A stretch of DNA of 64,000 nt. Source: Flectonema sp. DT1601 (Eukaryota). The position numbers and the translations under genes were made by a program. The notes below the pieces were generated by a model. That model worked only from the letters and a program-made list of their open reading frames with translations. It was not told where the DNA came from and did not search any database. Below, piece by piece: positions 13,168 to 53,458 of this stretch. The stretch spans positions 248,001 through 312,000 of the forward strand of contig OZ025795.1 of the NCBI GenBank assembly GCA_964019425.1, written 5' to 3'. Every line of letters begins with the position of its first letter. Positions within the stretch are counted from its first letter, which is position 1.

Positions 13168-13330
13168 GAAACAAAATTTATTACGCAAAAGTTTTCTAAA
13201 GCAAGAACAAGATCTCCCTTGTTTAGCAAATTGGGTTCTCTCCCAAACAGACAAAAGCGTCGGCGTGAAATAATACAAGAAAACCCTTAGTAGGTTTGAA
13301 ACTCTTCACTCGATAAATTAACAAGAGGGG
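13168..13330. repeat. Dispersed ~160-bp element, copy 1 (other copy 53203-53374)
   Basis: Colinear similarity between the copies, e.g. TTATTACGCAAA(A/G)GTTTTCTAAAG(C/T)AAGAA(C/T)AAGATCTCCCTTGT ... GTCGG(C/T)GT(G/A)AAATAATACAA ... AATTAACAAG. Confidence 0.85.
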
Positions 13331-13657
13331 TGATAGGTTCACTGTGCGTGTTAGACATTTTGCGATCTCTTTACATGCAACCACCTCACTTGGATTGTAA
13401 AATGATATGTTGTGCATCTGTGTAGTTATGAAAGGAAAAGTAATAACTCCACAGGCTGCAAAGTCAGAGTCTCCAAACGCCAGAATACCTCATTGTGATA
13501 CTTCGTACTAATTTATTCTACCTAACGTTTTCTAAATACTCCAACAATAAAAACCAACACCTCAAATTCATATTCTACTCCGTGTGATAATCTGGAACTC
13601 GTCAACGGAAGAGGATTACCAGCATAAGTCAACTCAAATATATTTGCCGCTTTGAAA

Positions 13658-13838
13658 AAAACCTGTTTTGAGAAAGAAGGCGTGACAAAAAAGCAATTAC
13701 ATCACACAAGACTGTTTCTTTTTTGTACAGAACATCGCTCGATGCAATGCGGGCGGGAACACCGTAAACGTGCGTAACCAGCAGCGTACGGCGCCCGAGA
13801 AGGAAGGGAAAGGAAGGAAGAGTGTGTTATCTGAAAAA
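13658..13838. repeat. 181-bp direct repeat, left copy, flanking the GC-rich gene island
   Basis: Matches 15572-15752 with two substitutions seen (GCTCG/GTTCG and GGGAAA/GGAAAA). Confidence 0.95.
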
Positions 13839-14726
13839 GGCGAGAGGAAAACGATTTTTCAAAAAAAAAAGAACTTGGTAAAAACGGTCGGTCCCAGAGG
13901 CGCGGCTCCAGCTTGAACAGCCGCAAAAAAAGGAACAACAATAACAACGCCTTGGCAAGAAAACGATTTTCTGATTATCTGATTTTTTTTTTTTTTTTTT
14001 GTATAAGAACGGCTTCCGTCCCACAATAAGAGAAGACACCGCCACCCTTCAGTTCGAAAGAATGTCAAAAATTGAGGTGAGGCGTTGCTTTTTTCCCTTT
14101 GGTTCGCTTCACTTCTTCTTTTGTTTTCCAGCTGCCGTGTGGAAAAAAAGCAAACCCGGAGCCTACCGCGAACAACACACAAATAATGAGATATACGTAT
14201 ATCATAAAAAGATGAAATGAAAAGGCCTTGCGCCGCCAAGCCCGTCGCCTTCCAATCCGCCACAACCGAAAACATGCAACAAACGTTCCCCTCTCCCCTG
14301 CTGGGGGCCACGCATAGCCAACACCAGGAAGAGAAGAAGGAGAACCACGAGAACCGATCGGGGGGAAAGGAAAAAGAAACGCAAAACCTAGCAGATCCTC
14401 ACCTCCGAACGGGGCCGAAATTGCCGACAAGAAAAAGGACGGAACGGGTTTCAGTTCGCTTTTTCTCGGAGAGAACAAAAGAACGGCCCCCAGCTGTGGG
14501 GAAAACTAACGAGTTGAACTCGGAAAATAAACAACAAAAAAAGTCCTTGTTGGCGCGCGCGCACATGACAGGCAACGAAAAGAAGGAAAAGGCTTTGTCG
14601 TCGCGATGCCAGCCAAAAGAAAAAAGAAGCAGAAAGAAGAAGATGAAGAAGAAGCGGAAGCAGAAGCAGAAGCGGAAGCGGGTGCCGGAACCCGTTGTTC
14701 GCCCCCCCGCCGCGCGTGTCCCATCC

Positions 14727-15527
14727 CTACTGAAAGGCCGCCTCCGTCAGAGCACAGTTGGTGCATCCCCTGCCGCCGCCTCCGCCTTCCTGACCACAGT
14801 ACGGAGGAATGCAAGGTCCCTGAAGCATCCTCGGGCACCAGTCGTCAACACACTCTCCCTTGATGACCTTGCACTGGTCGTATCCCGAGGTCTCGCACTT
14901 GGCAAGCGAGAAACCCGAGCAGTCCACGCCCCTGCTGTTCAGCGACGCGAACATCAGCCTCACGTTCGAACCCATGTCGACTCTCTCGAGGTGGTTCCGC
15001 GGAACCTGCTTCCTGAACGACATGAACTTGTGCTTGTCCTCCCCCGCGTCGCTGATGAACTTCGGCCCGCACGGCGAAGGAGTCCAACCCTCGGACAACA
15101 GGTAGTCCTTGAATTCCACGTTCAGCCCCCCGCCCAAGCATCCCGCGCACTTGTAGACGTTGATGTAGATGTCACACTTCTTCACCGACGGGTGGTCCGC
15201 GCACCAGAACCTCATGAACGAACCCGCCGCGATGTTCCATGGCGGGATGTAGGCGTCGTTCAGGAGCTGGGCCTCGGGGATGTGGAAGAACCTCGAACCA
15301 GCGGTCGACGGGTCGATCCATCCAGGCATGTAGTTGGCCACCAGCCCTCCCCCGAGAGCGAGCAACGTTCCGCTGCTCACCGTTGCCGCGCTGCTTGTGT
15401 CCGGCGTCCCGAACACGCACCAGCAGACGTCCGTCGGGTACTGGGCCAGGGCCGCCTGCAGGGCAGGCGAGTCTTGGGCTTGGGCAGCTGCGAAGAACGC
15501 CGTGATCAGGGTTGCGATGGCCTTCAT
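14727..15527 (-). CDS. Secreted Cys-rich protein, GC-rich and intronless, probably from a diplonemid-expanded family
   Basis: Signal peptide MKAIATLITAFFAAAQAQ, many Cys residues and strong GC3 bias. The motif GWTPSPCGPKF...FRKQV resembles a multicopy diplonemid family as recalled (unverified). The opposite-strand 460-aa ORF is its shadow. Confidence 0.8.
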   Translation of the reverse strand: MKAIATLITAFFAAAQAQDSPALQAALAQYPTDVCWCVFGTPDTSSAATVSSGTLLALGGGLVANYMPGWIDPSTAGSRFFHIPEAQLLNDAYIPPWNIAAGSFMRFWCADHPSVKKCDIYINVYKCAGCLGGGLNVEFKDYLLSEGWTPSPCGPKFISDAGEDKHKFMSFRKQVPRNHLERVDMGSNVRLMFASLNSRGVDCSGFSLAKCETSGYDQCKVIKGECVDDWCPRMLQGPCIPPYCGQEGGGGGRGCTNCALTEAAFQ

Positions 15528-15571
15528 TTTTTTTTTTTTCTTCTTCTTCTTTGCACGAAGGGGCTCAGAGC

Positions 15572-15752
15572 AAAACCTGTTTTGAGAAAGAAGGCGTGAC
15601 AAAAAAGCAATTACATCACACAAGACTGTTTCTTTTTTGTACAGAACATCGTTCGATGCAATGCGGGCGGGAACACCGTAAACGTGCGTAACCAGCAGCG
15701 TACGGCGCCCGAGAAGGAAGGAAAAGGAAGGAAGAGTGTGTTATCTGAAAAA
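15572..15752. repeat. 181-bp direct repeat, right copy; contains the probable trans-splice acceptor of the secreted-protein gene
   Basis: Minus strand reads CCTTCTTTCTCAAAACAG|GTTTT about 50 nt upstream of the ATG at 15527. Confidence 0.95.
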
Positions 15753-26180: not shown

Positions 26181-26464
26181 TTTGTAATATTATCACGCAG
26201 TCAGAAGCATGTTTTGAATTGAACTGCGAAAAGATGATATTTTTGACACGAGTTGGTACTCAATTCACTCAGCTCACCTTGTCGTCAGTCATGAAAGTAA
26301 AACAAAGGGATAACAACACGAAAGAACGCAACAGTTCTTCGTACATTCCAAAAGGGATTGAGCACTACCTCAAATCAGAAGCAAGACTGGCGTTGGAAAG
26401 GTTGTGTGTGTTATCCATCATGTGAATCATGTGAAGGAAGTGAATGTTCTGTTGAAGACCAGAC

Positions 26465-26555
26465 AATCAGACAGCCCGTCGTTGTTTGTCACCAGATCTG
26501 CACCCAAAGGGAGCAGGTAAGGCATCAGCTTGCAATACGACTTTCTCATCACGTG
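26465..26555 (-). ncRNA. Box C/D snoRNA family B; predicted guide for SSU Cm equivalent to E. coli 1402 / yeast Cm1639
   Basis: Minus strand: stem CAGACA, C GUGAUGA, D' CUGA, C' UGGUGA, guide CAACGACGGGC-UGU, D CUGA, stem UGUCUG. The guide pairs with SSU GCCCGUCGUUG and the D+5 rule lands on the first C. Copies at about 27510, 28207 (variant), 30972, 32140, 35499 and 36954; partial copy at 34490. Confidence 0.92.
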
Positions 26556-26587
26556 TCTGAAATTACTTCGAAGGAGATACATCAAGA

Positions 26588-26653
26588 GATTCTTGTACAC
26601 GTGGGTGTGCGTTAATTCCATATCCGGAAGGAACGCGACCGTATTGCGTACTT
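26588..26653 (-). ncRNA. Single-hairpin AGA-box (H/ACA-like) pseudouridylation guide RNA family C
   Basis: Lower stem GUACGC/GUGUAC, internal pocket, upper stem GCGUU..UUCC/GGAA..AACGC, then A-AGA-NNN. The pocket is partly complementary to LSU UGGGU..GACCGU (target tentative). Copies at about 27633, 31095, 32263, 34573, 35622 and 37077. Confidence 0.8.
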
Positions 26654-26728
26654 TCTAAAAAGAGATTGGGAACTTCCTCAACAACAAAAAGAATCAGCAG
26701 GGAAGCAGGAACACGGCAGAAAAAGCAA

Positions 26729-26822
26729 CGCTCAGACACGAAAGCTACGTCAACAAATAGCATTCAGGTGACTCACGGTCTGCAGAACTATGAGATCGGC
26801 TTTCTATCTCGTCAATCATTCG
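26729..26822 (-). ncRNA. Box C/D snoRNA family D (target unassigned)
   Basis: 7-bp terminal stem GCAACGC/GCGUUGC enclosing box C AUGAUUG and box D CUGA. Guides are complementary to ACGAAAGCUA and AACUAUGAGAUCGGC. Copies at about 27776, 28524, 31236, 32408, 34714, 35763, 36165 and 37218. Confidence 0.8.
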
Positions 26823-26883
26823 CGTTGCTATTTTCCCCTTTTTTACAACTCCTACAAAAACACAGAAAAGATGTCGCACACAC

Positions 26884-26974
26884 AGCTCAGACAGCAGGAC
26901 GGTAGTTGCAGTTTGGTTTCATGAGTAAAGGTTGGAAGCCATCAAATATTATGATAAGGTGATCATCTTCGCTC
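26884..26974 (-). ncRNA. Box C/D snoRNA family E; predicted guide for the LSU GTPase-associated centre (ACAGCAGGACGGU)
   Basis: Terminal stem (CAGAGC/GCUCUG in most copies), C-like AAGAUGA, D' UUGA and D CUGA. The 13-nt guide ACCGUCCUGCUGU is complementary to conserved LSU GACAGCAGGACGGU. Copies at about 27932, 28681, 31391, 32564, 34870, 35917 and 36319; internally deleted copy at 37374-37407. Confidence 0.88.
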
Positions 26975-27032
26975 TGAATGACGACAACTCAAATCAACGA
27001 GAAGAAGAAGAGAGAACGACAAGGAAACACGA

Positions 27033-27120
27033 AGTCAGCAAGTTTTAAACCTTTTTTCAAGTCACGAGAAATCAGAAGCAAGACTGGCGTTGGAAAGGTT
27101 GTGTGTGTTATCCATCATGT
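27033..27120 (-). ncRNA. Box C/D snoRNA family A; predicted guide for LSU Am equivalent to yeast Am1133 (snR61/U38 site)
   Basis: C AUGAUGG, then guide CGCCAGUCUUGCUU plus D' CUGA pairing with AAGCAAGACUGGCG (compare conserved AAGCAGAACUGGCG); D+5 falls on the A of GCA. Second guide AGGUUUAAAACUUG plus D CUGA. Copies at about 28082, 28834, 31663, 32717, 35023 and 36478; partial copy at 26375. Confidence 0.88.
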
Positions 27121-27204
27121 GAATCATGTGAGAAGTGCTGGTATTCCAAATGCATGAAAGGAATCGAAAAAGAACAACGCACTCACAACAGCAGGGCAAC
27201 AAAA

Positions 27205-27295
27205 GGATCAGCTTGAAGGCCGAAATTACTTGAAATCAATAAAAAGGATTTTCATACGAACGAGATCTATTGGGTAATTTCTATATCATCATGAG
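27205..27295 (-). ncRNA. Box C/D snoRNA family F; predicted guide for SSU Am equivalent to human 18S Am1383
   Basis: C AUGAUGA, then guide GAUCUCGUUCGU plus D' AUGA pairing with SSU ACGAACGAGAUC, and D CUGA with a second, unassigned guide. Copies at about 31835, 32889, 35195 and 36650. Confidence 0.88.
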
Positions 27296-27362
27296 ATATT
27301 GTGGAATCAATAACAACACAGAGAGGCGGATCTCAGGCAAAAGTCAGATGAGCGAATGGCAA

Positions 27363-27428
27363 ACATCTTCCGAGGTTGTCTGGACCCACAAAACATAAAG
27401 AAGGTCGTGCAGGGGATTCGACTCGGCT
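27363..27428 (-). ncRNA. Single-hairpin AGA-box guide RNA family G; predicted SSU pseudouridine equivalent to human 18S psi1367
   Basis: Lower stem CCGAG/CUCGG followed by A-AGA-UGU. Pocket strands GAAUC and CCAGACAA flank SSU UUGUCUGG[UU]GAUUC, with 15 nt from the pocket top to the AGA box. Copies at about 30825, 31993, 35352 and 36807. Confidence 0.85.
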
Positions 27429-28414
27429 ATCCTTCAACAACAGGCAGGCAATACGATGAATGGAACAACGACCTCACAACAGCGGGCAACAAAAGGATGA
27501 AGACCAGACAATCAGACAGCCCGTCGTTGTTTGTCACCAGATCTGCACCCAAAGGGAGCAGGTAAGGCATCAGCTTGCAATACGACTTTCTCATCATGTG
27601 TCTGAAATTACTTCAAAGGAGATACATCAAGAGATTCTTGTACACGTGGGTGTGCGTTAATTCCATATCCGGAAGGAACGCGACCGTATTGCGTACTTTC
27701 TAAAAAGAGATTGGGAACTTCTTCAACAACAAAAAGAATCAGCAGGGAAGCAGAGGAACACGGCAGACAAAGCAACGCTCAGACACGAAAGCTACGTCAA
27801 CAAATAGCATTCAGGTGACTCACGGTCTGCAGAACTATGAGATCGGCTTTCTATCTCGTCAATCATTCGCGTTGCTATTTTCCCCTTTTTTCCAATTCCC
27901 ACAAAAACACAGAAAAGATGTCGCACACACAGAGCTCAGACAGCAGGACGGTAGTTGCAGTTTGGTTTCATGAGTAAAGGTTGGAAGCCATCAAATATTA
28001 TGATAAGGTGATCATCTTCGCTCTGAATGACGACAACTCAAATCAACGAGAAGAAGAAGAGAGAACGACAAGGAAGCACGAAGTCAGCAAGTTTTAAACC
28101 TTTTTTCAAGTCACGAGAAATCAGAAGCAAGACTGGCGTTGGAAAGGTTGTGTGTGTTATCCATCATGTGAATCATGTGAAGGAAGTGAATGCTCGAAGA
28201 CCAGACAATCAGACAGCCCGTCGTTGTTTGTCACCAGATCTGCACCCAAAGGGAGCAGGTAAGGCATCAGCTTGCGCTACGACTTTGTCATCACGTGTCT
28301 GTAATAAATACATAGAAATTCAGGTGTGAAACCTCTGCACAGCAAGGCTCAATGATCATCTTCGCTCTGAATGACGGCAACTCAAATCAAAGACAGGTTC
28401 TGGAAAGGTTGTCA

Positions 28415-28493
28415 AATCAGACAAAGTAGTAGTAAGAAGTTATCGTCAAATATAATCCGACATATGCTTGTTATGATATGTGATCATCATATT
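28415..28493 (-). ncRNA. Box C/D snoRNA family H; predicted guide for SSU Am28 (yeast snR74 / human U27 site)
   Basis: C AUGAUGA, then guide ACAAGCAUAUG-U plus D' CGGA pairing with SSU CAUAUGCUUGU (D+5 = A28), C' UGACGA and D CUGA. Copies at about 31530 and 36056. Confidence 0.9.
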
Positions 28494-29119
28494 ACTTTAG
28501 ACAGTCAGTTTCAGAGAAAGCAACGCTCAGACACGAAAGCTACGTCAACAAATAGCATTCAGGTGACTCACGGTCTGCAGAACTATGAGATCGGCTTTCT
28601 ATCTCGTCAATCATTCGCGTTGCTATTTTCCTCCTTTTTTCCAACTCCCACAAAAACACAGAAAAGATGTCGCACACACAGAGCTCAGACAGCAGGACGG
28701 TAGTTGCAGTTTGGTTTCATGAGTAAAGGTTGGAAGCCATCAAATATTATGATAAGGTGATCATCTTCGCTCTGAATAACGACAACTCAAATCAACGAGA
28801 AGAAGAAGAAGAGAGAACGACAAGGAAGCACGAAGTCAGCAAGTTTTAAACCTTTTTTCAAGTCACGAGAAATCAGAAGCAAGACTGGCGTTGGAAAGGT
28901 TGTGTGTGTTATCCATCATGTGAATCATGTAAAGGAAGTGAATGAAAGATATAGTGTGAGAATCGTATGAGTACAGTAGCTGTAGTAGAAATAATTTTAA
29001 TTTTAAAGTCTAACGATCCACAATAATAAGGATAGCGCTACGAATGGATCTTAAGGCCCGACCTAAAAGGTTAGTTATTTCATTCTTTTTGTTTGTTCTT
29101 TAACTTTACTTAAACAAAC

Positions 29120-30422
29120 TTATTTGTGAGGTCTCCGATAGCCTCCTGCCGACTGATGTCCTCCAACTTTTCCCACTTTCACTTTTTCAGTATGTCCATT
29201 AAGGTAGTCTTCACGATAGGGATCTCGGGACTTTCCCCCTCGACCTCCTCTTTTCCCTCCGCCCTTATCACCCTTATATCCCTTACTTCCTGCCCTAGTC
29301 GGGTGGTCTTTTTGTATTATTTCCCTCACTTGCTCTTCTGGTTTTGCTGGTTCGTAGCTGTAAAGACTCTGTTTTAGTATTGTTATGTTTTATTGACTTC
29401 AAAAAGAGTATACGTGAGAGAATAATGTAACAAAACAAACCTCCATTTGCCTAGCTCTCTGCAAGGCTCGTGATCCAGCAGCTTTGGTTGCGTTAGTAAT
29501 CTTGTCAGTTTCTTTGTCGGTATTTTCTGTTTCTTTTGAAGGCTTGGCCACTGCACTTGGTGTAGAGCTGGCTTCCGTAGTCGAAGGCGTGTAAAGGCCG
29601 AGTTTTTTTAAGTCCTCGAAAATAGGAGACGGCCCAGGAGCATTTGCTTCCTTAGTTGGCTCCACGCGAGGTTGAGAATTCTTTTCACCAATTGAAAGTA
29701 ACAAGTTTGTTAATATGTGAGATGCCTCAGCTCCGTCACTTTTTTCATTAGTTGTAGGTGGAAGTGCCCGTTCCATAAGCTGCCTTTCCAAATCAACTGC
29801 ATCGCTGACTAATGTCTTTGGTGCTGTGTCCAGTATCGCCTCTGCAGGTGGTGGTGGAGTTGGTGCCCGTTCTACAAATAAATTATGCTTTACGCCATTC
29901 TTGTCAAACATCGCTACAAGCATTCTTACTAATTCTGGAGTGTTGCGCCCAGGGATTGGCACCAGTTTGTTAATACTACTTAACTGTTTTTATTATAATT
30001 TATTACATCTCTGATACAGGACAGGTTAATTATTATTATAAAGTAGTACATACACGAAGGTACACTCCTTCTTTGTCTTTGCCAAAGAATGCTTCGTAAA
30101 AAATTGGTCTTGCGACGTTGTCAACGCTGTACTGGACACCACTATTGCTTAAAGGATAAAACATTATTTCTGAGCCGTTGTATTTGAAAATTACAGGAGC
30201 CTCACCGTTTGCTTTTACATCGACTTCGATTGGAGGTGGTGGTGGTGGAGGTAGTTCACTTACTGGAGCAGGAGGAATATCTACGTTAATCCATTCTTCT
30301 CCTACTATTGGTGTAAACCCCAACATTGGTGGAGACGGTGGTGGTGGTGGTTCCGAAGGCGGCATAGGACATGCGTCCTTGTACTTATTCACGAACTCTT
30401 CATACGTGAATCCTAGCGGCAT
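29120..30422 (-). CDS. Hypothetical proline-rich protein with an RGG-like C-terminus; 3 exons (30422-30054, 29983-29441, 29368-29120)
   Basis: Two phase-0 GT..CAG introns join three ORF fragments in frame. Confidence 0.8.
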
Positions 30423-30677
30423 CTAAGGAGTTGGTTGGTGAATCTTAATATAACAGCACTTTTATGATTACTTTATCGTACCTGAAATAACATAAAATAT
30501 AAACAAAAAGAGTACAACGACAACAATCTACCTCAAACAACAGTATTTCTACATTATGCATGCCCTGCTAAAGGACAATGAGAAAATATATTATTAAAAA
30601 ATATATATCGTTGTAACTAAGCAACGTGTCATGCGTAGTGCCCAGGTATTACTCCATAACGTATTTATAATAAACAG

Positions 30678-33600
30678 CTAATCGTATACACAGAGTGTCT
30701 TTAGGTCATTATTATGAGACTTCCATGCCTGTTTTTTTTTATTTTTTCTCTTGTTTTAAAGGTATCGCTAATTCATTAATAAGGAAATACCAATCAACGC
30801 TAAAGTCAGATGAGTGAATGGCAAACATCTTCCGAGGTTGTCTGGACCCACAAAACATAAAGAAGGTCGTGCAGGGGATTCGACTCGGCTATCCTTCAAC
30901 AACAGGCAGGCAATACGATGAATGGAACAACGACCTCACAACAGCGGGCAACAAAAGGATGAAGACCAGACAATCAGACAGCCCGTCGTTGTTTGTCACC
31001 ACATCTGCACCCAAAGGGAGCAGGTAAGGCATCAGCTTGCAATACGACTTTCTCATCACGTGTCTGAAACTACTTCAAAGGAGATACATCAAGAGATTCT
31101 TGTACACGTGGGTGTGCGTTAATTCCATATCCGGAAGGAACGCGACCGTATTGCGTACTTTCTAAAAAGAGATTGGGAACTTCCTCAACAACAAAAAGGA
31201 TCAGCAGGAAAGCAAGAACACGACAGAAAAAGCAACGCTCAGACACGAAAGCTACGTCAACAAATAGCATTCAGGTGACTCACGGTCTGCAGAACTATGA
31301 GATCGGCTTTCTATCTCGTCAATCATTCGCGTTGCTATTTTCCCCTTTTTTCCAACTCCCACAAAACACAGAAAAGATGTCGCACACACAGAGCTCAGAC
31401 AGCAGGACGGTAGTTGCAGTTTGGTTTCATGAGTAAAGGTTGGAAGCCATCAAATATTATGATAAGGTGATCATCTTCGCTCTGAATGACGGCAACTCAA
31501 ATCAAAGACAGGTTCTGGAAAGGTTCTCAAATCAGACAAAGTAGTAGTAAGAAGTTATCGTCAAATATAATCCGACATATGCTTGTTATGATATGTGATC
31601 ATCATATTACTTTCAGTCAGTTTAAAGTACAGAACCGACACCAGAAGTGACACGAACCACGAAGTCAGCAAGTTTTAAACCTTTTTTCAAGTCACGAGAA
31701 ATCAGAAGCAAGACTGGCGTTGGAAAGGTTGTGTGTGTTATCCATCATGTGAATCATGTGAGAAGTGCTGGTATTCCAAATGCATGAAAGGAATCGAAAA
31801 AGAACAACGCACTCACAACAGCAGGGCAACAAAAGGATCAGCTTGAAGGCCGAAATTACTTGAAATCAATAAAAAGGATTTTCATACGAACGAGATCTAT
31901 TGGGTAATTTCTATATCATCATGAGATATTGTGGAATCAATAACAACACAGAGAGGCAGATCTCAGGCAAAAGTCAGATGAGCGAATGGCAAACATCTTC
32001 CGAGGTTGTCTGGACCCACAAAACATAAAGAAGGTCGTGCAGGGGATTCGACTCGGCTATCCTTCAACAACAGGCAGGCAATACGATGAATGGAACAACG
32101 ACCTCACAACAGCGGGCAACAAAAGGATGAAGACCAGACAATCAGACAGCCCGTCGTTGTTTGTCACCAGATCTGCACCCAAAGGGAGCAGGTAAGGCAT
32201 CAGCTTGCAATACGACTTTCTCATCATGCGTCTGAAATTACTTCAAAGGAGATACATCAAGAGATTCTTGTACACGTGGGTGTGCGTTAATTCCATATCC
32301 GGAAGGAACGCGACCGTATTGCGTACTTTCTAAAAAGAGATTGGGAACTTCTTCAACAACACACAAAAAGGATCAGCAGGGAAGCAGGAACACGGCAGAA
32401 AAAGCAACGCTCAGACACGAAAGCTACGTCAACAAATAGCATTCAGGTGACTCACGGTCTGCAGAACTATGAGATCGGCTTTCTATCTCGTCAATCATTC
32501 GCGTTGCTATTTTCCCCTTTTTTCCAACTCCCACAAAAACACAGAAAAGATGTCGCACACACAGAGCTCAGACAGCAGGACGGTAGTTGCAGTTTGGTTT
32601 CATGAGTAAAGGTTGGAAGCCATCAAATATTATGATAAGGTGATCATCTTCGCTCTGAATGACGACAACTCAAATCAACGAGAAGAAGAAGAAGAGAGAA
32701 CGACAAGGAAGCAAGAAGTCAGCAAGTTTTAAACCTTTTTTCAAGTCACGAGAAATCAGAAGCAAGACTGGCGTTGGAAAGGTTGTGTGTGTTATCCATC
32801 ATGTGAATCATGTGAGAAGTGCTGGTATTCCAAATGCATGAAAGGAATCGAAAAAGAACAACGCACTCACAACAGCAGGGCAACAAAAGGATCAGCTTGA
32901 AGGCCGAAATTACTTGAAATCAATAAAAAGGATTTTCATACGAACGAGATCTATTGGGTAATTTCTATATCATCATGAAAAGGGTGAACCACAAGCACAA
33001 CATTAGAAGCAGAAGAAAGAATAATTACAAACCGTTAGGACAGATCGATGGTCGTTTTCGAGAAGAGAAATAATCTTTTTCTTGTGAATGTCGATGAAGT
33101 ATGAATAAGAGTGAATTAGTTCTCGTTGTTTACCACAATTTGAGTCGATAACTGACTCTATTGCTTTGATTCGAAGAAAGAGACCATCAAAAAGATTAAG
33201 TCGAGTAAAGCCACTATGCCACTGGTTGTACTCAGTGCCGACACTCGATGATAGAACCCCATCAGTAGAGTCATCATAAGGAACGGGTAATGCTTCATTA
33301 ATCTGACCTATACCTGGGTAACCAGTCTCACTGGGATAGACGAGTTTATTAACTATTTTATCGCCTCTAAGAGGCTGACTGTTCGCATTTTCAATGATTC
33401 CACCATCTGACCACACTGGTAAGGCTCCTTTCTGAACGATCGTGTGACTTTGAAACTGCTTTAAATCCTTCGTAAGATCTTTCAACTCACTTTTTTCAAC
33501 GAAATCCAAAAAAGATTTTATCGCACGTTTAGCAACAACTCCGTCCTTTGAGCGCTTTTTCCGCTCCTTTCTAGTAGAAGAAGGTCCACTACCGACATTT

Positions 33601-34409
33601 AATCCTTTCTTACCCTTTGGGAGATTCCACTCCGCCAATGACCTATAGAGTTCTATGCTTTGATTTATAGAAGGTGGGCAGACGTTTAGTTTACCCAGAC
33701 CTTCAGCTATTAATTTACTGTCACCATCTTGATTTTGAACAAGTCTCTTGGCTGATTCTACGACATGGTCTCGATTTGCTGGTCCGAAAACCAGTTTTGC
33801 AAGTTCCAGAGGTGCTAAACAGGAATGAAAATAAGCCATCGTTAAAGCTTCATCCTCAGGTAGGGCTGAGCGTCGGATTGACTCACGGAGATAGTCAGCC
33901 GCCTGTGTTGTTTTTTTTTGTTATGGAAATAATAAACCTCACTAGGCGTTAAAGGTACATACCAACTCATACTTGCCAAGCTCTGTGTAACACCTTCCAA
34001 CATGATAACGTGTCTCAGCTGTGTCAAGAAGCTGATCAGCTTTAAGAAAAGCATTCAATGCTTCTTTCCAATCGTTTAGATGCCTCGATAATATTTCACC
34101 CAATCTTAAGCTAGCTCTTCCAGCCTCGAGTGGAGAACCTGTCAAGTTTCCAACAGCTTGAAGTAATTGAACTGCCTCAATCACTACAGGTTCTTCAGCA
34201 GCTGGGATAAAAACACCACTTTGTACAGTTTTATCTATATATTGTTTAAACATCTCTTGAGCTACAAACCCTCCAAATCCACCCAATGCTTCTTGATTAA
34301 CAACTGTTACCATTGGTGAGAAATCTAATACTAATAATCCAACAATCACTACTATTGTTGGAAGCCATCCTCCTTTCTGTGGCTTTCCCTCAGGCGGGAG
34401 AGGGACCAT
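30678..34409 (-). CDS. Membrane-anchored TPR-like protein, snoRNA host gene; 3 coding exons (34409-33963, 33902-33033, 30728-30678)
   Basis: N-terminal TM segment and TPR-like helices (EALNAFLKADQL..ETRYHVGRCYTELGKYELAADYLRESI). The donor ACG|GTTTGT at 33032 pairs with acceptor AAAAAAAAACAG|GCA at 30729, giving the in-frame end AWKSHNNDLKTLCVYD*. The last exon is inferred. Confidence 0.75.
30800..32978 (-). ncRNA. snoRNA array 2 (intronic): 15 units G,B,C,D,E,H,A,F,G,B,C,D,E,A,F
   Basis: Same modules as array 1, all apparently intact, filling the predicted intron 30729-33032. Confidence 0.9.
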
Positions 34410-34489
34410 ATTGTCGCTCGCCTGGTAATCGAAATAATGCCTTGCAAAGTTATATTACTTTACTTCTCTAAAATTAACTTTAACATCTC

Positions 34490-37431
34490 CAAAGGGAGCA
34501 GGTAAGGCATCAGCTTGCAATAGACTTTCTCATCATGTGTCTGAAATTACTTCAAAAGGAGATACATCAAGAGATTCTTGTACACGTGGGTGTGCGTTAA
34601 TTCCATATCCGGAAGGAACGCGACCGTATTGCGTACTTTCTAAAAAGAGATTGGGAACTTCCTCAACAACAAAAAGGATCAGCAGGGAAGCAGGAACACG
34701 ACAGACAAAGCAACGCTCAGACACGAAAGCTACGTCAACAAATAGCATTCAGGTGACTCACGGTCTGCAGAACTATGAGATCGGCTTCCTATCTCGTCAA
34801 TCATTCGCGTTGCTATTTTCCTCCTTTTTTCCAACTCCCACAAAACACAGAAAAGATGTCGCACACACAGAGCTCAGACAGCAGGACGGTAGTTGCAGTT
34901 TGGTTTCATGAGTAAAGGTTGGAAGCCATCAAATATTATGATAAGGTGATCATCTTCGCTCTGAATGACGACAACTCAAATCAACGAGAAGAAGAAGAAG
35001 AGAGAACGACAAGGAAGCAAGAAGTCAGCAAGTTTTAAACCTTTTTTCAAGTCACGAGAAATCAGAAGCAAGACTGGCGTTGGAAAGGTTGTGTGTGTTA
35101 TCCATCATGTGAATCATGTGAGAAGTGCTGGTATTCCAAATGCATGAAAGGAATCGAAAAAGAACAACGCACTCACAACAGCAGGGCAACAAAAGGATCA
35201 GCTTGAAGGCCGAAATTACTTGAAATCAATAAAAAAGATTTTCATACGAACGAGATCTATTGGGTAATTTCTATATCATCATGAGATATTGTGGAATCAA
35301 TAACAACACAGAGAGGCGGATCTCAGGCAAAGTCAGATGAGCGAATGGCAAACATCTTCCGAGGTTGTCTGGACCCACAAAACATAAAGAAGGTCGTGCA
35401 GGGGATTCGACTCGGCTATCCTTCAACAACAGGCAGGCAATACGATGAATGGAACAACGCACTCACAACAGCGGGCAACAAAAGGATGAAGACCAGACAA
35501 TCAGACAGCCCGTCGTTGTTTGTCACCAGATCTGCACCCAAAGGGAGCAGGTAAGGCATCAGCTTGCAATACGACTTTCTCATCATGTGTCTGAAATTAC
35601 TTCAAAGGAGATACATCAAGAGATTCTTGTACACGTGGGTGTGCGTTAATTCCATATCCGGAAGGAACGCGACCGTATTGCGTACTTTCTAAAAAGAGAT
35701 TGGGAACTTCCTCAACAACAAAAAGGATCAGCAGGGAAGCAAGAACACGACAGAAAAAGCAACGCTCAGACACGAAAGCTACGTCAACAAATAGCATTCA
35801 GGTGACTCACGGTCTGCAGAACTATGAGATCGGCTTTCTATCTCGTCAATCATTCGCGTTGCTATTTTCCTCCTTTTTTCCAACTCCCACAAAACACAGA
35901 AAAGATGTCGCACACAGAGCTCAGACAGCAGGACGGTAGTTGCAGTTTGGTTTCATGAGTAAAGGTTGGAAGCCATCAAATACTATGATAAGGTGATCAT
36001 CTTCGCTCTGAATGACGACAATTCAAATCAAAGACAGGTTCTGGAAAGGTTCTCAAATCAGACAAAGTAGTAGTAAGAAGTTATCGTCAAATATAATCCG
36101 ACATATGCTTGTTATGATATGTGATCATCATATTACTTTAGACAGTCAGTTTCAGAGAAAGCAACGCTCAGACACGAAAGCTACGTCAACAAATAGCATT
36201 CAGGTGACTCACGGTCTGCAGAACTATGAGATCGGCTTTCTATCTCGTCAATCATTCGCGTTGCTGTTTTCCCTTTTTTTCCAACTCCCACAAACACAGA
36301 AAAGATGTCGCATACACAGAGCTCAGACAGCAGGACGGTAGTTGCAGTTTGGTTTCATGAGTAAAGGTTGGAAGCCATCAAATATTATGATAAGGTGATC
36401 ATCTTCGCTCTGAATGACGACAACTCAAATCAACGAGAAGAAGAAGAAGAAGAAGAGAGAACGACAAGGAAGCAAGAAGTCAGCAAGTTTTAAACCTTTT
36501 TTCAAGTCACGAGAAATCAGAAGCAAGACTGGCGTTGGAAAGGTTGTGTGTGTTATCCATCATGTGAATCATGTGAGAAGTGCTGGTATTCCAAATGCAT
36601 GAAAGGAATCGAAAAAGAACAACGCACTCACAACAGCAGGGCAACAAAAGGATCAGCTTGAAGGCCGAAATTACTTGAAATCAATAAAAAGGATTTTCAT
36701 ACGAACGAGATCTATTGGGTAATTTCTATATCATCATGAGATATTGTGGAATCAATAACAACACAGAGAGGCGGATCTCAGGCAAAGTCAGATGAGCGAA
36801 TGGCAAACATCTTCCGAGGTTGTCTGGACCCACAAAACATAAAGAAGGTCGTGCAGGGGATTCGACTCGGCTATCCTTCAACAACAGGCAGGCAATACGA
36901 TGAATGGAACAACGACCTCACAACAGCGGGCAACAAAAGGATGAAGACCAGACAATCAGACAGCCCGTCGTTGTTTGTCACCAGATCTGCACCCAAAGGG
37001 AGCAGGTAAGGCATCAGCTTGCAATACGACTTTCTCATCACGTGTCTGAAATTACTTCAAAGGAGATACATCAAGAGATTCTTGTACACGTGGGTGTGCG
37101 TTAATTCCATATCCGGAAGGAACGCGACCGTATTGCGTACTTTCTAAAAAGAGATTGGGAACTTCCTCAACAACAAAAAGGATCAGCAGGGAAGCAGGAA
37201 CACGACAGAAAAAGCAACGCTCAGACACGAAAGCTACGTCAACAAATAGCATTCAGGTGACTCACGGTCTGCAGAACTATGAGATCGGCTTTCTATCTCG
37301 TCAATCATTCGCGTTGCTATTTTCCTCCTTTTTTCCAACTCCCACAAAACACAGAAAAGATGTCGCACACACAGAGCTCAGACAGCAGGACGGTGCAATC
37401 TTCGCTCCGAATGACGACAACTCAAATCAAG
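34490..37431 (-). ncRNA. snoRNA array 3: 21 units B(partial),C,D,E,A,F,G,B,C,D,E,H,D,E,A,F,G,B,C,D,E(deleted)
   Basis: Same modules, bounded by a consensus donor CAG|GTGAGT (37453) and a CAG acceptor (34422) just upstream of the host ATG. Confidence 0.9.
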
Positions 37432-42457: not shown

Positions 42458-43609
42458 CTACCACGATAAAAGATGTGTTAGTATATCGGATACAACTGCC
42501 ACACAGACTGAGTTCCCTAAAAGTCGATATTTCTGTCTCAATGAAGTTTCAGGATGGAATTGAAAACTATCAGGGAATGCGAGTAGCTGTCTAATCTCAT
42601 TCGGATCAAATCTTCGAATTCTAAGTTTCAACAAATCACATAAGGCGTTAGGGTCTTGTTTTGCAGGACAACCACACTCATCATGATTTGTAATAGCAGC
42701 TTTAACTTCTGCAGTAGTCGTTGCGTTGTGACACATCATAGACCCTGTCCCCTCAACGTACTGTGGATATCCTTTAGTAAAACACATTGAACCAGTTGAA
42801 TGAGGGAATATTATATCCATTAATCTTGTTAACGTACCACATAAGTCTTTTTGAGTTAGAAGGTATTCATCAACACAGTCCCCGTTATTCTTTAAGTAAT
42901 CGCTCAACGACACTGTTTTGTGTCTCAGAGAAGGGGCAGTATTACTTAGGGGTGTGGAGATCCCGAATCCCGTTGGAGTTTTTTTCTTTTTCGCGATGAG
43001 GTAGTATCTCAATCTAGAATTTGGAATTCCACAGTGATTAGGATTCAATAAGAATTCCTTAACGCTGTAGCCAAGCGTCAGTAGTAATGAAAACAAGTCG
43101 TCGTGAGGGATCGAAATTTCAAAATTTCGAACGTTCTCAATGAACAACATCTGTGGTCTCGCATTCATAGGCAACGACACAAGTGTATTTAAAAGAAAAT
43201 AAAACGACTTCGTCCTTGGATCTTCCTGACCCTTCTGCAGACCCATTCGTGTAAAAGGTTGACAAGGTGGTGATGCTAACCAAACATCAGCTTTACACTT
43301 AAGCAGCTCTGCGTACTTAAGAGACTCGATGCTACATTGTCTTACTTTGGTAGTTTTAAAGTTGTGTTTGTATGTCTTATTCGCTAAGTCGTTTATTTCA
43401 ACACAGAATGCAACTTTTCCTTTTATTCCTAAACTAGCACATGCAGCATCAAAGGCGTAGTGATTTCCTCCAATTCCACTATAAAAGTCAATCGCTGTGA
43501 GCTCATCTGTGGTACGAACCTGTTCTTCATTATTAGCATCCGTAGCAATTGGAGGTCGTAGTCTACATGATGCTATCAGAGAACGATACATTAAGTCCCA
43601 TGATGTCAT
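42458..43609 (-). CDS. DNMT2: tRNA (cytosine-5)-methyltransferase DNMT2/TRDMT1
   Basis: C5-MTase motifs DFYSGIGG, SPPCQPF, ENV, PNSRLRYY and LLGNS, plus the DNMT2-diagnostic CFTKGY. Confidence 0.92.
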   Translation of the reverse strand: MTSWDLMYRSLIASCRLRPPIATDANNEEQVRTTDELTAIDFYSGIGGNHYAFDAACASLGIKGKVAFCVEINDLANKTYKHNFKTTKVRQCSIESLKYAELLKCKADVWLASPPCQPFTRMGLQKGQEDPRTKSFYFLLNTLVSLPMNARPQMLFIENVRNFEISIPHDDLFSLLLTLGYSVKEFLLNPNHCGIPNSRLRYYLIAKKKKTPTGFGISTPLSNTAPSLRHKTVSLSDYLKNNGDCVDEYLLTQKDLCGTLTRLMDIIFPHSTGSMCFTKGYPQYVEGTGSMMCHNATTTAEVKAAITNHDECGCPAKQDPNALCDLLKLRIRRFDPNEIRQLLAFPDSFQFHPETSLRQKYRLLGNSVCVAVVSDILTHLLSW

Positions 43610-43714
43610 TTTAGTGGGATTGTTGTGTTCTAAAAAGAAAAAATAGCTTTAAAATATAAGTTTTTTTATTCTTTTTTTTACACATGTTTTTTTTTTTGTT
43701 TCTAAAAACTTTTT

Positions 43715-45642: not shown

Positions 45643-48600
45643 CTAAAGCCAACATTCCCGAGGAGAGAGTAACTTACTCCACGGGTCAGGAGAACCGGCG
45701 TAGTCCTCCCTGCGATCTTCAATTTTTGATAGTTTTCGTTGAAGATGTGTCATTTGGTTACTAAGTGAAGACAACACCATTAGTACTCTTGGATCACTTC
45801 CTCGGATTGGATCTCCGCGACCATCACGTTGATGTCGCTTCCGTCCTTTTGGCTTCTCAGGAATCGTAATGTCACTGAAGCTGGTGTCGTAATCACTTTC
45901 AGGAGTGATATTCATTTTAGACGCTCTTCTTATTAGCCAATACTCACGATTATGTAAAGCCTTTACATCAGCGTTTAGTTCTTGTGCTTTCTTATCAAGT
46001 TTTAGTCTTGCTTTGCGTAAGACTTTTATTACTTCTGTTTGTTCTTCCATTCCTCGTAAGCCGTCAACATCAGTGTCCCATTGTTTGCGTAGTGATTGCA
46101 GCTTCTCCTGTTTTTTTAAAAATTGGTTTTTTTTTTTTTTTTTGTAACAGTCCTTTGTTTTAAAAAAAAAAGACATCAAGATATACCTGTCGAGCTTTCA
46201 ATTCTCGTTTTTGTCTTTTGAGATAGTGCTTTGCTTGCCGAAGGGCTTCATACCCAGGTGAAGGCCGGTTATCTTTGTATGGCTTTGGTTGAGTTCGTCT
46301 GGTGTTTCGTGACTTTGCTTCGTGTTCTTTCTCAGCACGTTTGATATAAGGCTGTAGGATAGCATCACTATCATTGTCAGATGGTAATGAAATGTTTTCA
46401 AGAGGAGGAGGAGGTGCTTGAGACTTTAACGTTGGTTCCTTTCTAACAGGTTTTACTGCAGGGATCGCATTAGTCAAATCTTGAAATCTTTGATGGGTCG
46501 CAGTGTTTCTCTCTAATTCATCAGCAAGTCGCTTTTCAACTTCTTTGATCGAATTCTCTGCAGCATCAGCAGCAGTTCGTAAAGCGATGTCGAGCTTTTC
46601 CTGTTCCATGTTCTGAAAGTCTGCAAGGCGGAGTTTCATTTCACTCTCAACATGTTCTCGTTCAACAGCTTCCCTTTCAGATGCTTGTTTTTGTAATTCA
46701 GATATCACTTTTTGAAAGGCGTCTGTCTGCTCTTTACGGAATGCCTCAATCTTTGCTTCAGTTGCTTTCCTTTCCTCTTCCATGTGTGTATTGCTGCTGC
46801 TTTCAAGTAGGGTTTCTTTCTCTGCAAGAGAAGCATCTTGAAGCCTGCTTATTTCATCTGCTATGCGAAGTTCTTCTTCTTGTCTTCTTTGATTTATTAG
46901 TCTGCTTGATTCTTCAGCGTAGTTTTTAATGTGATTTTCTGTCTCTTCTTCGAGACGTTTTTTTTCAGCAGATATTCTCTCTTTGTGTTCTTTGAGGATG
47001 TCGTCTAGTTTTTGTTCACCTTCCAGTTCGATTGACTTCTCAAGATCAGCAAGTTGTTTTTTGTGAGTTTGTTCAGCAGCTGTGATCTGTTTTTTTAGTA
47101 GGGATTCTTGACGTTGGGTTTCTTCTTCAAGAGTTAGTAGTCTTTGAGAGAGGTCCTGTTGTTTTAGTTGAAGGTCGTTATCCAGTTGTGAGGACTTATC
47201 ATCAGCAACTTGTCGAAGTGAAGCAATTTCCTGTTCAAGTTGTTGTGTCGAATTAAGATTCGAATCCTTTCGAGAAAGTATTAAATCTTGTTGTCTTTTC
47301 ATTTCAGAATTTAAATCATTCAGAGTTGTGACTTGTGACGCGATGTCGGATTCTAGTCGAGTTCGTTTCTCCTTCAGCTGTTCTTGAATTACTTCAAGTT
47401 CTTTTAATTTTGATGCTCTCTGTTCGTGTTGTAATCGACTTGCAGCTATTTCTTCATCAAGTCTATCACTTGGAAGACTCATAGAACTTAGTGAACGACC
47501 TTCATTAGATAGATTCTTATCATTTTGTAATTGAGTTGTGAGTTCTTGAAGATCTGATTGTTTGGTAGTTATGATGTCTTCTAAATTTTGTTTTTCAGAT
47601 GTCATTTCTCGCTGTCGTTTTTCTGCTTCAGCTAATAAAGCGGAAGACTCCTGTTCATGAGTCTCTTTTAGAGAACTTATTTGTTTTAGTAAATCAGCTT
47701 GGAGTTTTTGTTTATCAACGTCGGTAGTTGATCTCGCTGTAGTGAGGGTTTCTTCTTGTTCTTCTCGGAGTCTGGTTAGCTCTTTTTTGTTTCGGATTCG
47801 AAGGTCTTCGAGTTCTTGTTCTTGGTCATGGAGTGCTTTAGTTTCACTTTGTCGTTTAATATCAGAAAGTCTTTCTTCTTTTGATGCTGTCAGTTGTTTT
47901 ATTTTACGTTGTTTTTCAACTTCCAGTTGTTTTCTACTTTGATCTTGTAGGAGTTGTTGGTTAGCTCTCCAAGACTCGTACTTTTCACTTATCTCACCTT
48001 CGTATTTTCGACGTCTTTCTTGAAGTTCTGATTCCCATTCATTTTGCTTTGCGGTGTTTTTTCTTCGAGATGTACTTTTTAAAGTGTCCATCTGTAATTC
48101 TAAGTCTTCTATCTCCTTTTGATATTCGTGTTTCATTCTACGCTTCTGTGCTTCGTGAGTTAGTTTTTCCTGCTCTTCAATTTCTTGGTATTTGTCTCGG
48201 ATTTTATCGATTTCCTTTTTAAGTTCATTTTCAGCTTTTCTAATAGCGGTTTGATCTGGACCTATTTCTTCAGGTTTAGAGATTATACTACCAGACAAAT
48301 TACCTTGAACTGATTTCAGACCCCTCATCGTGAGGGGAGCTGAGGTAGGACCATCGGCATCAATACCCTTACGCAACACAGGTAAAGCTGTTCTCCCTAA
48401 GGCTGATGCACTTATTGGGTCACCAGTTGTTGCTAGTGGAGCAGGTAGCCCAGCACCAAATTTATTTTTTTTAAGTCCACCTTTTTCCAAAGTGTTTCCA
48501 ACTTTAACGTCGTTCTTCTCAGTTGCTTGTGACAATGCTCTTGATAGCGTGTCTGGAAGAGCACCTTTTTCACCCTTTTCTTTTTTTTTTCGATCTTTCT

Positions 48601-49021
48601 TCGGAGGATGTCCGTGAATAAATTCATAAGTCTCATCGTCAGGACCCTTTTTGAACGGTTTACCTTCGCGTCTTTTTTTATTTTCTCTTTTGTAAAGTGC
48701 TTTGAATTGTTCATCTAATGGATGGTCCCATATAGATTCACCAGTTTGAAAATTAAAATAATAAAGATCTGCTGTATCAGTTTTACATTGTCTCCAATTA
48801 TCAGGTAGTGGTGCTTTTAGTCCTTCTTCAGCTATCCAAGTAAGTTGTGAGTCTTGGTTTATTTCCATACCAAGCCAGTTAGCATAGTCTAATACTTGTG
48901 AATGAGGTGGCTTATAATCGGGATCAAATTCATCCTCAAGAACAACACTTGCTGTTCCATCATCAGCGTAGTAAACCAAATCTGATTTAGGGATGATCAC
49001 CCTTTCTTTAGGTCCTCCCAT
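45643..49021 (-). CDS. CEP164: CEP164-like WW-domain coiled-coil protein, paralog 1; 2 exons (49021-46187, 46107-45643)
   Basis: VLEDEFDPDYKP..YANWLGM...WIAEEGLKAPLPDNW...YYFNFQTGESIWDHPLD is the CEP164 N-terminal signature, followed by a long coiled coil. Confidence 0.88.
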
Positions 49022-49726
49022 ATTATTTTTTTTTTTTCCCCCCTTCCAGTTCTGTCGTTACATAATTTTAATTTTTCATAAAAAAGAAATTTTGACCCAA
49101 CAAAGGGTACACATAAAAGGGTAATAAGAAAAATATAAACAGAAAATAACAATAAATAACAATAAATATAATTTTAAAAAAAAAAAAAAAGAGGGTAATA
49201 AAGATGAAATACACCTCTCTTGAAAAAATCGCATGATATCTAATCAAAAAAAGAAACAAGAAAAAGAGGAGAAAGAAGACAAAATAGATAGGCAATGGTG
49301 ATACTGAGCTAAGGGAAGCTGGTGAAGAAGAAAAAACTATCAGCCATTGGACTCGCTTGACTTCAGTCTACTTTTATACAAATAAGAAGGAAAAATTTCA
49401 ATCAATTAGTCAATGATACAGTGACCACAGCGATTTTTTATTTTTTATTTTTATTTTTTAAATTCAAAAATCAGTTTAAAAAAAAAAAATAATGTTTTTT
49501 TTTTTTTTTTTTTTTTGCTTGAATAATTGAAGAATAAAGAATTAGGTGGTTCAGGAATGGTACACACAAAGAAAGTATAAAAACTATTTTAAAAAAAAAA
49601 AAAAAAAATCCGATTATTACACAAAAAGTAACAAAATTAAGTTGATTACAGCATGTCGTAGCCAGAAAGCCAGAAGCTGTTAGCCGTGAGGGTAATCTAA
49701 TACACAAAGATCAACAGAATGTTAAT

Positions 49727-52700: not shown

Positions 52701-53083
52701 GCTTTGAAAGGTTTTCCTTCCCTTCGTTTTTGACTCTCTCTCTTGTAGAGGGTTTTAAACTTCTCATCGAGAGGATGATCCCAAATTGACTCACCAGTTT
52801 GAAAGTTAAAATAATAAACATCTGCCGTCTTGACATTCTTTATGGGTCTCCAGTTCTCTGGAAGTGGAGTTGTTAATCCTTGGTATGCAATCCACATTAG
52901 AGGGCCGTCATTGTCGATGTCCATTTCTAACCAAGCAGCGTATTCAAGGATTTCTGTTTCTGAAGGCTCATAGTCTGGTTTAAAGACGTCTTCTAATACA
53001 ATACTTTCGGTTCCGGTCTCCTCAGAGTAGTAGACCGACTGAGCATCAGGAATAATCACCTTCTCTCCCCCTTTGCCCTTCAT
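49727..53083 (-). CDS. CEP164: CEP164-like WW-domain coiled-coil protein, paralog 2; 2 exons (53083-50306, 50221-49727)
   Basis: Same N-terminal signature. The intron is at the homologous position (RQ|) with GTGTGT..TAG ends. Confidence 0.88.
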
Positions 53084-53202
53084 GATGTTATCCTCTCCTT
53101 TTATATGAAATTAATATTATTTTATTTTTTTATACAGGAAAAAAGAAAATAAATAAATAAATAACCGCCATTAAAAAATATAAATGCAAAAAAAGGAATG
53201 GG

Positions 53203-53374
53203 GAAAACAAAAGTTATTACGCAAAGGTTTTCTAAAGTAAGAATAAGATCTCCCTTGTGTAGGAAATTGTTGTTTTCTCCCAAATAATAAATAGACGAAA
53301 GTGTCGGTGTAAAATAATACAATAAAACCTTTAGTTGGTTCGAAACGCCTCATTTAATTAACAAGTGAGGGGGG
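53203..53374. repeat. Dispersed ~160-bp element, copy 2 (other copy 13168-13330)
   Basis: See copy 1; same orientation, upstream of a different gene. Confidence 0.85.
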
Positions 53375-53458
53375 TTAGTATGAAAAAGTTTTTTAAAAAG
53401 AAAAAGTGCTTTAGTACTGGTTGCTTTAATAACGTGGTCAATATCGTTTAGATAAATC

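Follow-up and report, generated by a model that had tools for sequence, protein, structure and literature searches.

Repeated arrays of predicted rRNA-modification guide snoRNA units in and around protein genes of Flectonema sp. DT1601

In Flectonema sp. DT1601, a stretch of 64,000 nucleotides (nt) of contig OZ025795.1 (assembly GCA_964019425.1, positions 248,001 to 312,000 of the forward strand; hereafter the window, whose own numbering is used throughout) contains three arrays of short, near-identical units. These arrays are very probably repeated clusters of eight small nucleolar RNA (snoRNA) units that guide the modification of ribosomal RNA (rRNA), and the middle array, which sits in a predicted coding intron, is likely released by splicing. 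The evidence consists of the repeats themselves, of the boxes and hairpins in their units, of guide sequences that pair with stand-in rRNA in the D+5 register, and of exons of one host gene on either side of the middle array. Altogether, the DNA points to a well-supported snoRNA cluster of a known euglenozoan kind, with its intronic tandem layout as a variant feature.

Repeated units of two predicted guide classes

When eight reference modules were compared with the window by BLAST, a full copy being one in which at least 85% of the reference aligned, 52 full units were found in the 64 kb, all on the minus strand, 96-100% identical and divisible into the eight families (A to H) that had been proposed in an earlier note made from the letters alone (Table 1). 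Three broken units bring the total to 55, the number already given in that note, where it was split into 51 and 4 rather than 52 full and 3 broken. The lettering also differs: judging from the counts, families A, B, C, D, E, F, G and H of the note most likely correspond to G, D, C, B, A, E, F and H here. Comparison of the window with itself restricts long direct repeats, 95-99% identical, to positions 26372-37430. The most frequent order of units is A-B-C-D-F-E-G-A, next to shuffled variants, and a cycle period of 1,049 nt is seen in an independent sequencing run (X1). The major junctions are A-B (8), B-C (7), C-D and G-A (6 each), D-F and E-G (5 each) and F-E (4); minor ones are B-H, H-A and D-G (2 each) and G-H (1).

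Six families (A, B, D, E, G and H) are of the C/D type described earlier, each with a C-like box and a terminal CTGA. The C box reads ATGATGA in D, E and H, ATGATGG in G, ATGATTG in B and ATGATCA in A, and its distance to CTGA is 47-88 nt across the six families; terminal stems of 6-8 base pairs (bp) are clear in A, B and D. The arrays (7.7 kb) hold 44 instances of a C-box-like motif with CTGA after it on the minus strand and none on the plus strand, and the other 56 kb hold 24 on both strands, in a census that is descriptive only, as its pattern was written to take in the observed variants.

The remaining families, C and F, fold as the single-hairpin RNAs with a terminal AGA that the earlier note had seen in them, provided that the pockets are held open. 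In this constrained fold, stem I has 6 bp in C and 5 bp in F, and AGA stands 15 nt from the 3' pocket arm in both. Trypanosomatid AGA RNAs have hairpins of 57-91 nt, a stem I of 5-8 bp, a target U at a distance of 13-16 nt from AGA, and pockets with 3-9 pairs on either side (PMC2613932; papers are cited here by PubMed Central number and for the portions of each that were available), and C and F lie within these ranges in hairpin length, stem I and AGA position. Both guide classes are mixed in one cluster and the cluster is itself repeated, as is characteristic of euglenozoan snoRNA clusters.

Some features of the spacers stand apart from the units. The D-F spacer (35426-35493) and the E-G spacer (35110-35197) have in common a block of 37 nt, 92-97% identical, both AGA RNAs are preceded by a TGTTGTTGA motif, and the E-G spacer is without any variation across 5 copies. 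The block, the motif and the invariant spacer could be processing signals or an unrecognised RNA. The two spacers were considered as additional hairpin RNAs and rejected, their folding being no better than that of shuffled sequences. The broken unit at 28372-28305 was likewise set aside as a ninth family, since it is present in a single copy and, despite boxes resembling C and D, has no convincing target.

Variation among copies is unevenly distributed. The comparison takes in copies that align over 80% or more of their length at an identity of at least 88%, a filter below which some spacer copies fell, and uses boundaries between RNA body and spacer set by the authors. RNA bodies carry 9 substitutions and no indel column in 4,209 copy-bases, and spacers 23 substitutions and 12 indel columns in 3,090 copy-bases (binomial p 7e-4 for the depletion of substitutions in bodies). 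Six of the nine body changes fall in family D, and three are private to the copy at 28301. This pattern bears on the idea of a snoRNA-derived satellite, in which one or two functional clusters would be accompanied by neutral by-products of recent tandem expansion, without any role in dosage. Recent copying could explain the near-identity of the units, and the three broken units, the shuffled order, copy numbers that differ between families (from 3 to 9) and the additional arrangement seen in run X1 would be in keeping with a satellite. However, RNA bodies have accumulated proportionally fewer changes than spacers, the bodies of C, F, G and H are invariant, and all boxes are kept in 52 of the 55 units, which makes this explanation improbable.

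Predicted targets on stand-in rRNA

Guide pairing was evaluated on eukaryotic ribosomal DNA (rDNA) found in prokaryote assemblies, mainly a plant-type sequence (L067). At least 51 prokaryote assemblies in GTDB (L025-L075) carry the start of a eukaryotic 18S gene, some of them whole rDNA units, and a plasmid record labelled Acinetobacter is almost entirely 18S-like. The numbering of the stand-in was calibrated to the Arabidopsis table of 2'-O-methylated nucleotides (Nm; PMC8053127): for the large subunit (LSU) an offset of 8 fits 17 of 17 sites, and for the small subunit (SSU) the offsets fit all sites in five tested ranges. On the 35 calibrated sites, out of 111 in the table, four of the 11 guides bring D+5 exactly onto an Nm site with 8 or more contiguous pairs, compared with 3 of 505 controls (18-mers upstream of CTGA elsewhere in the window), a contrast somewhat inflated because the D' boxes (CGGA, CAGA, ATGA) and the 8-bp threshold were picked post hoc.

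The SSU sites among these assignments are reached by families H, D and E. The guide of H pairs with SSU over 11 bp and places D+5 on Am28. The D guide of family D places it on Cm1645, with 8 bp on plant rRNA and 14 bp on a Leishmania 18S primer (PMC11748178); longer pairing with Leishmania than with plant rRNA is as expected if this is a euglenozoan guide. The D' (ATGA) guide of E pairs over 10 bp with D+5 on Am1330. On LSU, 13 of 14 positions of the G family's D guide are paired, with D+5 on Am1143, and a candidate D' (CAGA) guide of B, its box picked post hoc, pairs over 8 bp with D+5 on Am826. The four targets named in the earlier note for C/D guides (SSU Am28, Cm1639 or Escherichia coli 1402, and the equivalent of Am1383, and the equivalent of LSU Am1133) were thereby reproduced on the plant-type stand-in; in Arabidopsis numbering they are Am28, Cm1645 (yeast Cm1639), Am1330 (human Am1383 by offset) and LSU Am1143. 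The D guide of B was tried on LSU G917 and failed on the stand-in, and its best listed site, G814, has 6 contiguous pairs only.

Two more guides stand out when whole rRNA is scanned: the D guide of A pairs with LSU over 16 positions (a length reached by 0.5% of 400 controls) and that of E over 14 positions (3%), which predicts Cm at 1238 and Am at 1484 in Arabidopsis numbering, both absent from the Arabidopsis table as available. In total, 7 of the 11 guides have an assignment on the stand-in, and none of the six C/D families lacks a guide that pairs over 8 or more contiguous positions or, in G, over 13 of 14.

For the AGA RNAs, the best canonical pocket of C holds the plant LSU U five bases before the A-loop Um, with 4 + 6 pairs, which by its spacing matches human pseudouridine (psi) 4463 (human table in PMC6182160); an alternative, the equivalent of psi4502, needs one bulge and was read by eye. 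In F, the 3' arm pairs over 8 bp beside SSU U1313 of L067, 16 nt before the target of E, and this distance equals that between human psi1367 and Am1383. The F pocket was also read by eye, and the psi1367 equivalent named earlier thus holds for one arm of the pocket, whereas pairing of the 5' arm fails on plant SSU.

Relaxed comparison with Rfam (E at most 10, positions 34900-36200) gave 14 matches, all 14 to C/D or small Cajal body-specific RNA families on the minus strand, and none of the modules matched trypanosomatid Rfam families. The top match is family H to SNORD27 (RF00086; E 0.0053), at 31 bits where 52 are required for membership, and the alignment to the consensus includes a shared 3' element. 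On this sequence and its predicted target, H is likely the SNORD27/U27 counterpart, and it is not filed as a member. Family G has a weak match to snoZ223.

A separate observation concerns copies of family D. In the copy at 28202-28301, three private changes are clustered in the D' guide region, and run X1 contains another divergent D; the guide in such copies is possibly drifting toward a new target.

Predicted host intron, proposed release of the guides and alternative readings

The window comes from a diplonemid genome, as the earlier note had suspected, judging from the Rab GDI gene: its identity is 94% with a transcript of Flectonema neradi, 77% with Diplonema papillatum and about 61% with kinetoplastids. 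The GDI introns, mapped through homologues, start with GTATGT and end in A-rich tracts, and A-rich 3' splice sites have been described in D. japonicum (PMC12621601). The minus strand carries 17 of the 18 window open reading frames (ORFs) of at least 250 amino acids (aa), and genes of D. papillatum are laid out in one-strand clusters (PMC10161547).

The host of array 2 is the orthologue of D. papillatum DIPPA_07147 (protein P0025). A search of 1.84 billion representatives with its exon 2 ORF (33902-33033) gave three homologues apart from the ORF itself, and where named, homologues of the host are only diplonemid. P0025 and P0026, the latter from Lacrimia lanifica, extend 15-16 residues past the window donor at 33032. 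For both tails, the AG at 30729 is the best of 355 downstream AGs (scores of 55 against 21 for the next with P0025, and of 36 against 7 with P0026), and because this best match to the C-terminal tail lies just behind array 2, the array is placed inside a phase-0 coding intron. It has in-frame exons of one gene on either side and GT-AG borders, as expected of an intronic cluster, and its A-rich acceptor is of the same kind as those of the validated GDI introns; splicing is inferred from protein homology. The position of the intron looks conserved, given that the sequence of protein P0002 continues into a comparable donor at this point and that a D. papillatum isoform, P0027, switches its tail there. 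The recorded gene call for exon 2 (P0001) extends into the intron and misses the last exon.

The other two arrays lie outside coding sequence. Array 1 is upstream of the host ATG (34409) and is flanked by a donor-like GTGAGT (37453) and an AG (34422); it starts 23 nt after GTGAGT and ends 67 nt before the AG, itself 12 nt before the ATG. A 5' untranslated region (UTR) intron is plausible from these signals, with an outron as the alternative. Array 3 follows the stop of gene Y (29120) and precedes the ATG of a beta-helix gene; a transcriptome homologue of gene Y, P0029, aligns over all three of its exons. The earlier description of the repeats as interleaved with protein genes says too little, for array 2 is placed inside a gene; its location in a coding intron had been missed in the note and is added here.

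Fibrillarin acts in 2'-O-methylation and Cbf5 in pseudouridylation. Beyond the anatomy of the DNA, we infer a route in which the whole minus-strand region would be read, with its flanking genes, as one polycistronic RNA polymerase II transcript. Array 2 would be freed as an excised cis-spliced intron, and arrays 1 and 3 as a UTR intron, an outron or an intergenic piece after trans-splicing and polyadenylation. Nucleases would then cut in the spacers and trim to protein-protected ends, the six C/D RNAs would direct 2'-O-methylation by fibrillarin, which is included in the available diplonemid gene listings, and the two AGA hairpins would direct pseudouridylation by Cbf5. Unequal crossing-over and local duplication would have given rise to the copy number and the shuffling of the order, and selection would preserve the RNA bodies. 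More tentatively, and with rather less than even confidence, it could be hypothesized that one eight-guide cassette has spread locally, within one polycistronic unit, into three kinds of site: an intergenic spacer, a conserved coding intron and what is probably a 5'-UTR intron. Its guides would then mature both by cis-splicing and by trans-splicing with polyadenylation, tying maturation of the host mRNA to rRNA modification by a route that disappeared from kinetoplastids together with their introns; reshuffling of the order between strains would be continuing, and the D guides of A and E would mark LSU sites outside the Arabidopsis map.

Besides the post hoc choices mentioned above, several results weigh against reading the arrays as guide clusters with a spliced middle array. 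No module reaches an Rfam gathering score. Terminal stems are weak in G (4 bp) and unclear in E and H, and unconstrained folding of the two AGA hairpins is no better than that of shuffled sequences (z -1.5 and +1.1). All guide pairings are with stand-in rRNA: a search of metagenomes for diplonemid rRNA with the E guide gave 22 matches, all 22 apparently chance hits in unrelated sequence, scans of viral contigs gave two non-rRNA loci and one blank, a plasmid search gave two records, and six target strings were found in none of the 12 Leishmania supplementary files searched out of 18. In the scan of whole rRNA, only the D guides of A and E, out of 11 guides, beat 95% of controls, and the best match of family D's D guide is not Cm1645; the automatic pocket scan on the stand-in did not return the target of F, and four of the 11 guides (A-D', B-D, D-D' and H-D) are left without an assigned target. 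The spacer indels sit in simple runs and may be sequencing errors. Lastly, acceptor-like A-rich AG sites precede every B copy within the arrays, so that splicing is possibly more complex than the release of one lariat.

About as improbable as a satellite is the alternative that the snoRNA genes are real, each array is transcribed from its own promoter, and the intron position of array 2 is incidental. The same units inside and outside introns imply that splicing is not needed for all copies, and independent intergenic clusters occur in Ostreococcus and plants (PMC7671301). On the other hand, every array is co-oriented with its flanking genes, array 2 starts 54 nt past the donor, which leaves little room for a promoter, and the arrays begin with different units, with no upstream sequence in common when the window is compared with itself. 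Upstream of array 1, a bacterial promoter scan, whose model is not applicable to this organism, gave nothing.

It is still less likely that the copy number and placement of the units are artefacts of a collapsed or mis-joined repeat assembly. Near-identical repeats assemble poorly, and no contig of the independent runs crosses a whole array or a border between array and gene. These two runs, from two studies and of unrecorded kind, have small shares (0.17 and 0.10) and low depths; their contigs, 90-100% identical to the modules, connect units across F-E, B-H and D-G junctions, and run X1 holds an order absent from the window (B, H, 43 nt, then a divergent D). Neither the host exons nor the middle of the unique part of the broken unit (near 28323-28341) is covered in them, which carries no weight as evidence, and the run search listed no RNA run with the sequence. 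The runs support the internal junctions, not copy number or expression. Against an artefact are these same junctions in other runs, the private substitutions and distinct spacers of individual copies, and the host exons, which flank array 2 in the right order and phase. That the units are no snoRNAs at all, but a transposon remnant or a protein-coding repeat with chance boxes, has next to no likelihood: it would fit the want of an Rfam match at gathering score, but D+5 falls on known sites far above controls, the weak Rfam matches are all to snoRNA families on the minus strand, and the array ORFs of at least 90 aa are plus-strand frames only (100-157 aa).

Table 1. Arrays, unit families, broken units and neighbouring genes in the window
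Feature	Position	Strand	Description
Array 1	34489..37430	-	19 full + 2 broken units; broken A, B C D F E G A B H A B C D F E G A B C, truncated D
Array 2	30800..32978	-	15 full units; E G A B C D F E G H A B C D F
Array 3	26372..28935	-	18 full + 1 broken units; G A B H, broken A, D-variant, G A B C D F E G A B C D G
Family A	36318..36412	-	8 copies; C/D; 6-bp terminal stem
Family B	36160..36265	-	9 copies; C/D; 8-bp terminal stem
Family C	35622..35686	-	7 copies; single hairpin + AGA, ~65 nt
Family D	35494..35593	-	7 copies; C/D; 6-bp terminal stem
Family E	35195..35287	-	5 copies; C/D
Family F	35352..35415	-	5 copies; single hairpin + AGA, ~64 nt
Family G	35055..35112	-	8 copies; very compact C/D; C-to-D 47 nt
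Family H	36052..36140	-	3 copies; C/D
Broken A	~37430-37377	-	array 1; internal deletion
Truncated D	34543-34489	-	array 1
Broken A	~28372-28305	-	array 3; A 5' end joined to unique sequence
Host exon 1	33963..34409	-	149 codons; located by tblastn of P0025; no Pfam family
Host exon 2	33033..33902	-	290 codons; 46% identity to P0025 residues 150-458
Predicted intron with array 2	30729..33032	-	2,304 nt; GT..AG, phase 0; donor GTTTGT, A-rich acceptor ending ACAG
Host last exon	30678..30728	-	AWKSHNNDLKTLCVYD then stop; 16 conserved residues
Gene Y	29120..30422	-	three exons; no Pfam family; between arrays 2 and 3
Beta-helix gene	ATG at 26180		downstream of array 3
Rab GDI gene	63171-61672		94% identical to a Flectonema neradi transcript

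Other features were observed elsewhere in the window. A direct repeat of 181 bp, 99% identical (13658-13838 and 15572-15752), flanks a segment with a GC content of up to 63% in a genome near 38%; the segment has a minus-strand ORF with a signal-peptide-like start, many cysteines and no Pfam family, and could be an LTR-like (long terminal repeat) or captured insert, with no clear target-site duplication at 13658-15752. Three tandem paralogues with an N-terminal WW domain occupy 45643-54283, two of them with long charged stretches and a duplicated small last exon. An ORF of the C-5 cytosine methylase family (42458-43648) is presumably a DNMT2-like tRNA methylase. A 170-bp repeat, 79% identical, is found unexplained at 13169-13336 and 53205-53378, 40 kb apart.

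Relation to known snoRNA clusters

A literature search lacking most subscription papers, including the primary Euglena ones, returned no description of diplonemid snoRNAs and, within the same scope, no paper on intronic snoRNA clusters in Euglenozoa; the word "snoRNA" is absent from the text of the D. papillatum genome paper (PMC10161547) and from its 7 supplementary files. Diplonemids are the third main euglenozoan lineage. If the present locus is expressed, AGA single hairpins and repeated mixed clusters occur in all three lineages and probably go back to the euglenozoan ancestor. The intronic array brings in an arrangement otherwise described in plants and green algae, and the locus supplies named modification sites together with a test of how snoRNAs exit from a cis- and trans-spliced transcript. 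In practical terms, it is invisible to Rfam at gathering score. An intronic snoRNA cluster has reportedly been found in Chlamydomonas as well.

The earlier note had pointed to repeated clusters of C/D and AGA RNAs from trypanosomatids and Euglena. They are described as mixed, repeated and polycistronically processed in trypanosomatids (PMC2613932), and Euglena gracilis is described as having multi-copy linked modification-guide snoRNA genes (PMC2784804; PMC7671301). Like the trypanosomatid clusters (PMC2613932), those of Flectonema are mixed and repeated, C/D RNAs outnumber AGA RNAs, and the AGA RNAs are single hairpins within the 57-91 nt range. Unlike in trypanosomatids, which on the available account almost lack cis-spliced introns (PMC11613528), one array here appears to lie in a coding intron, and three arrays of shuffled order are found in and around two neighbouring genes. 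With Euglena, in which the guides are polycistronic, the locus shares clustered, multi-copy guides and single-hairpin RNAs.

In plants and Ostreococcus, intronic polycistronic clusters are known in which, as predicted here, several snoRNAs occupy one intron of a protein gene and leave it as a polycistronic precursor (PMC7671301). Unlike the plant and algal clusters, it is tandemly repeated (two rounds, 15 units), contains AGA single hairpins, and has a host that is without a Pfam family and found, where named, only in diplonemids. Families H, D, G, B and E share their D+5 sites with Arabidopsis U27, U43, U38, U80 and SnoR32 (PMC8053127); only H has sequence support as a counterpart, below gathering score, and a shared target does not prove common descent. 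Altogether, the arrays are not a new kind of system but a solid extension of a known one.

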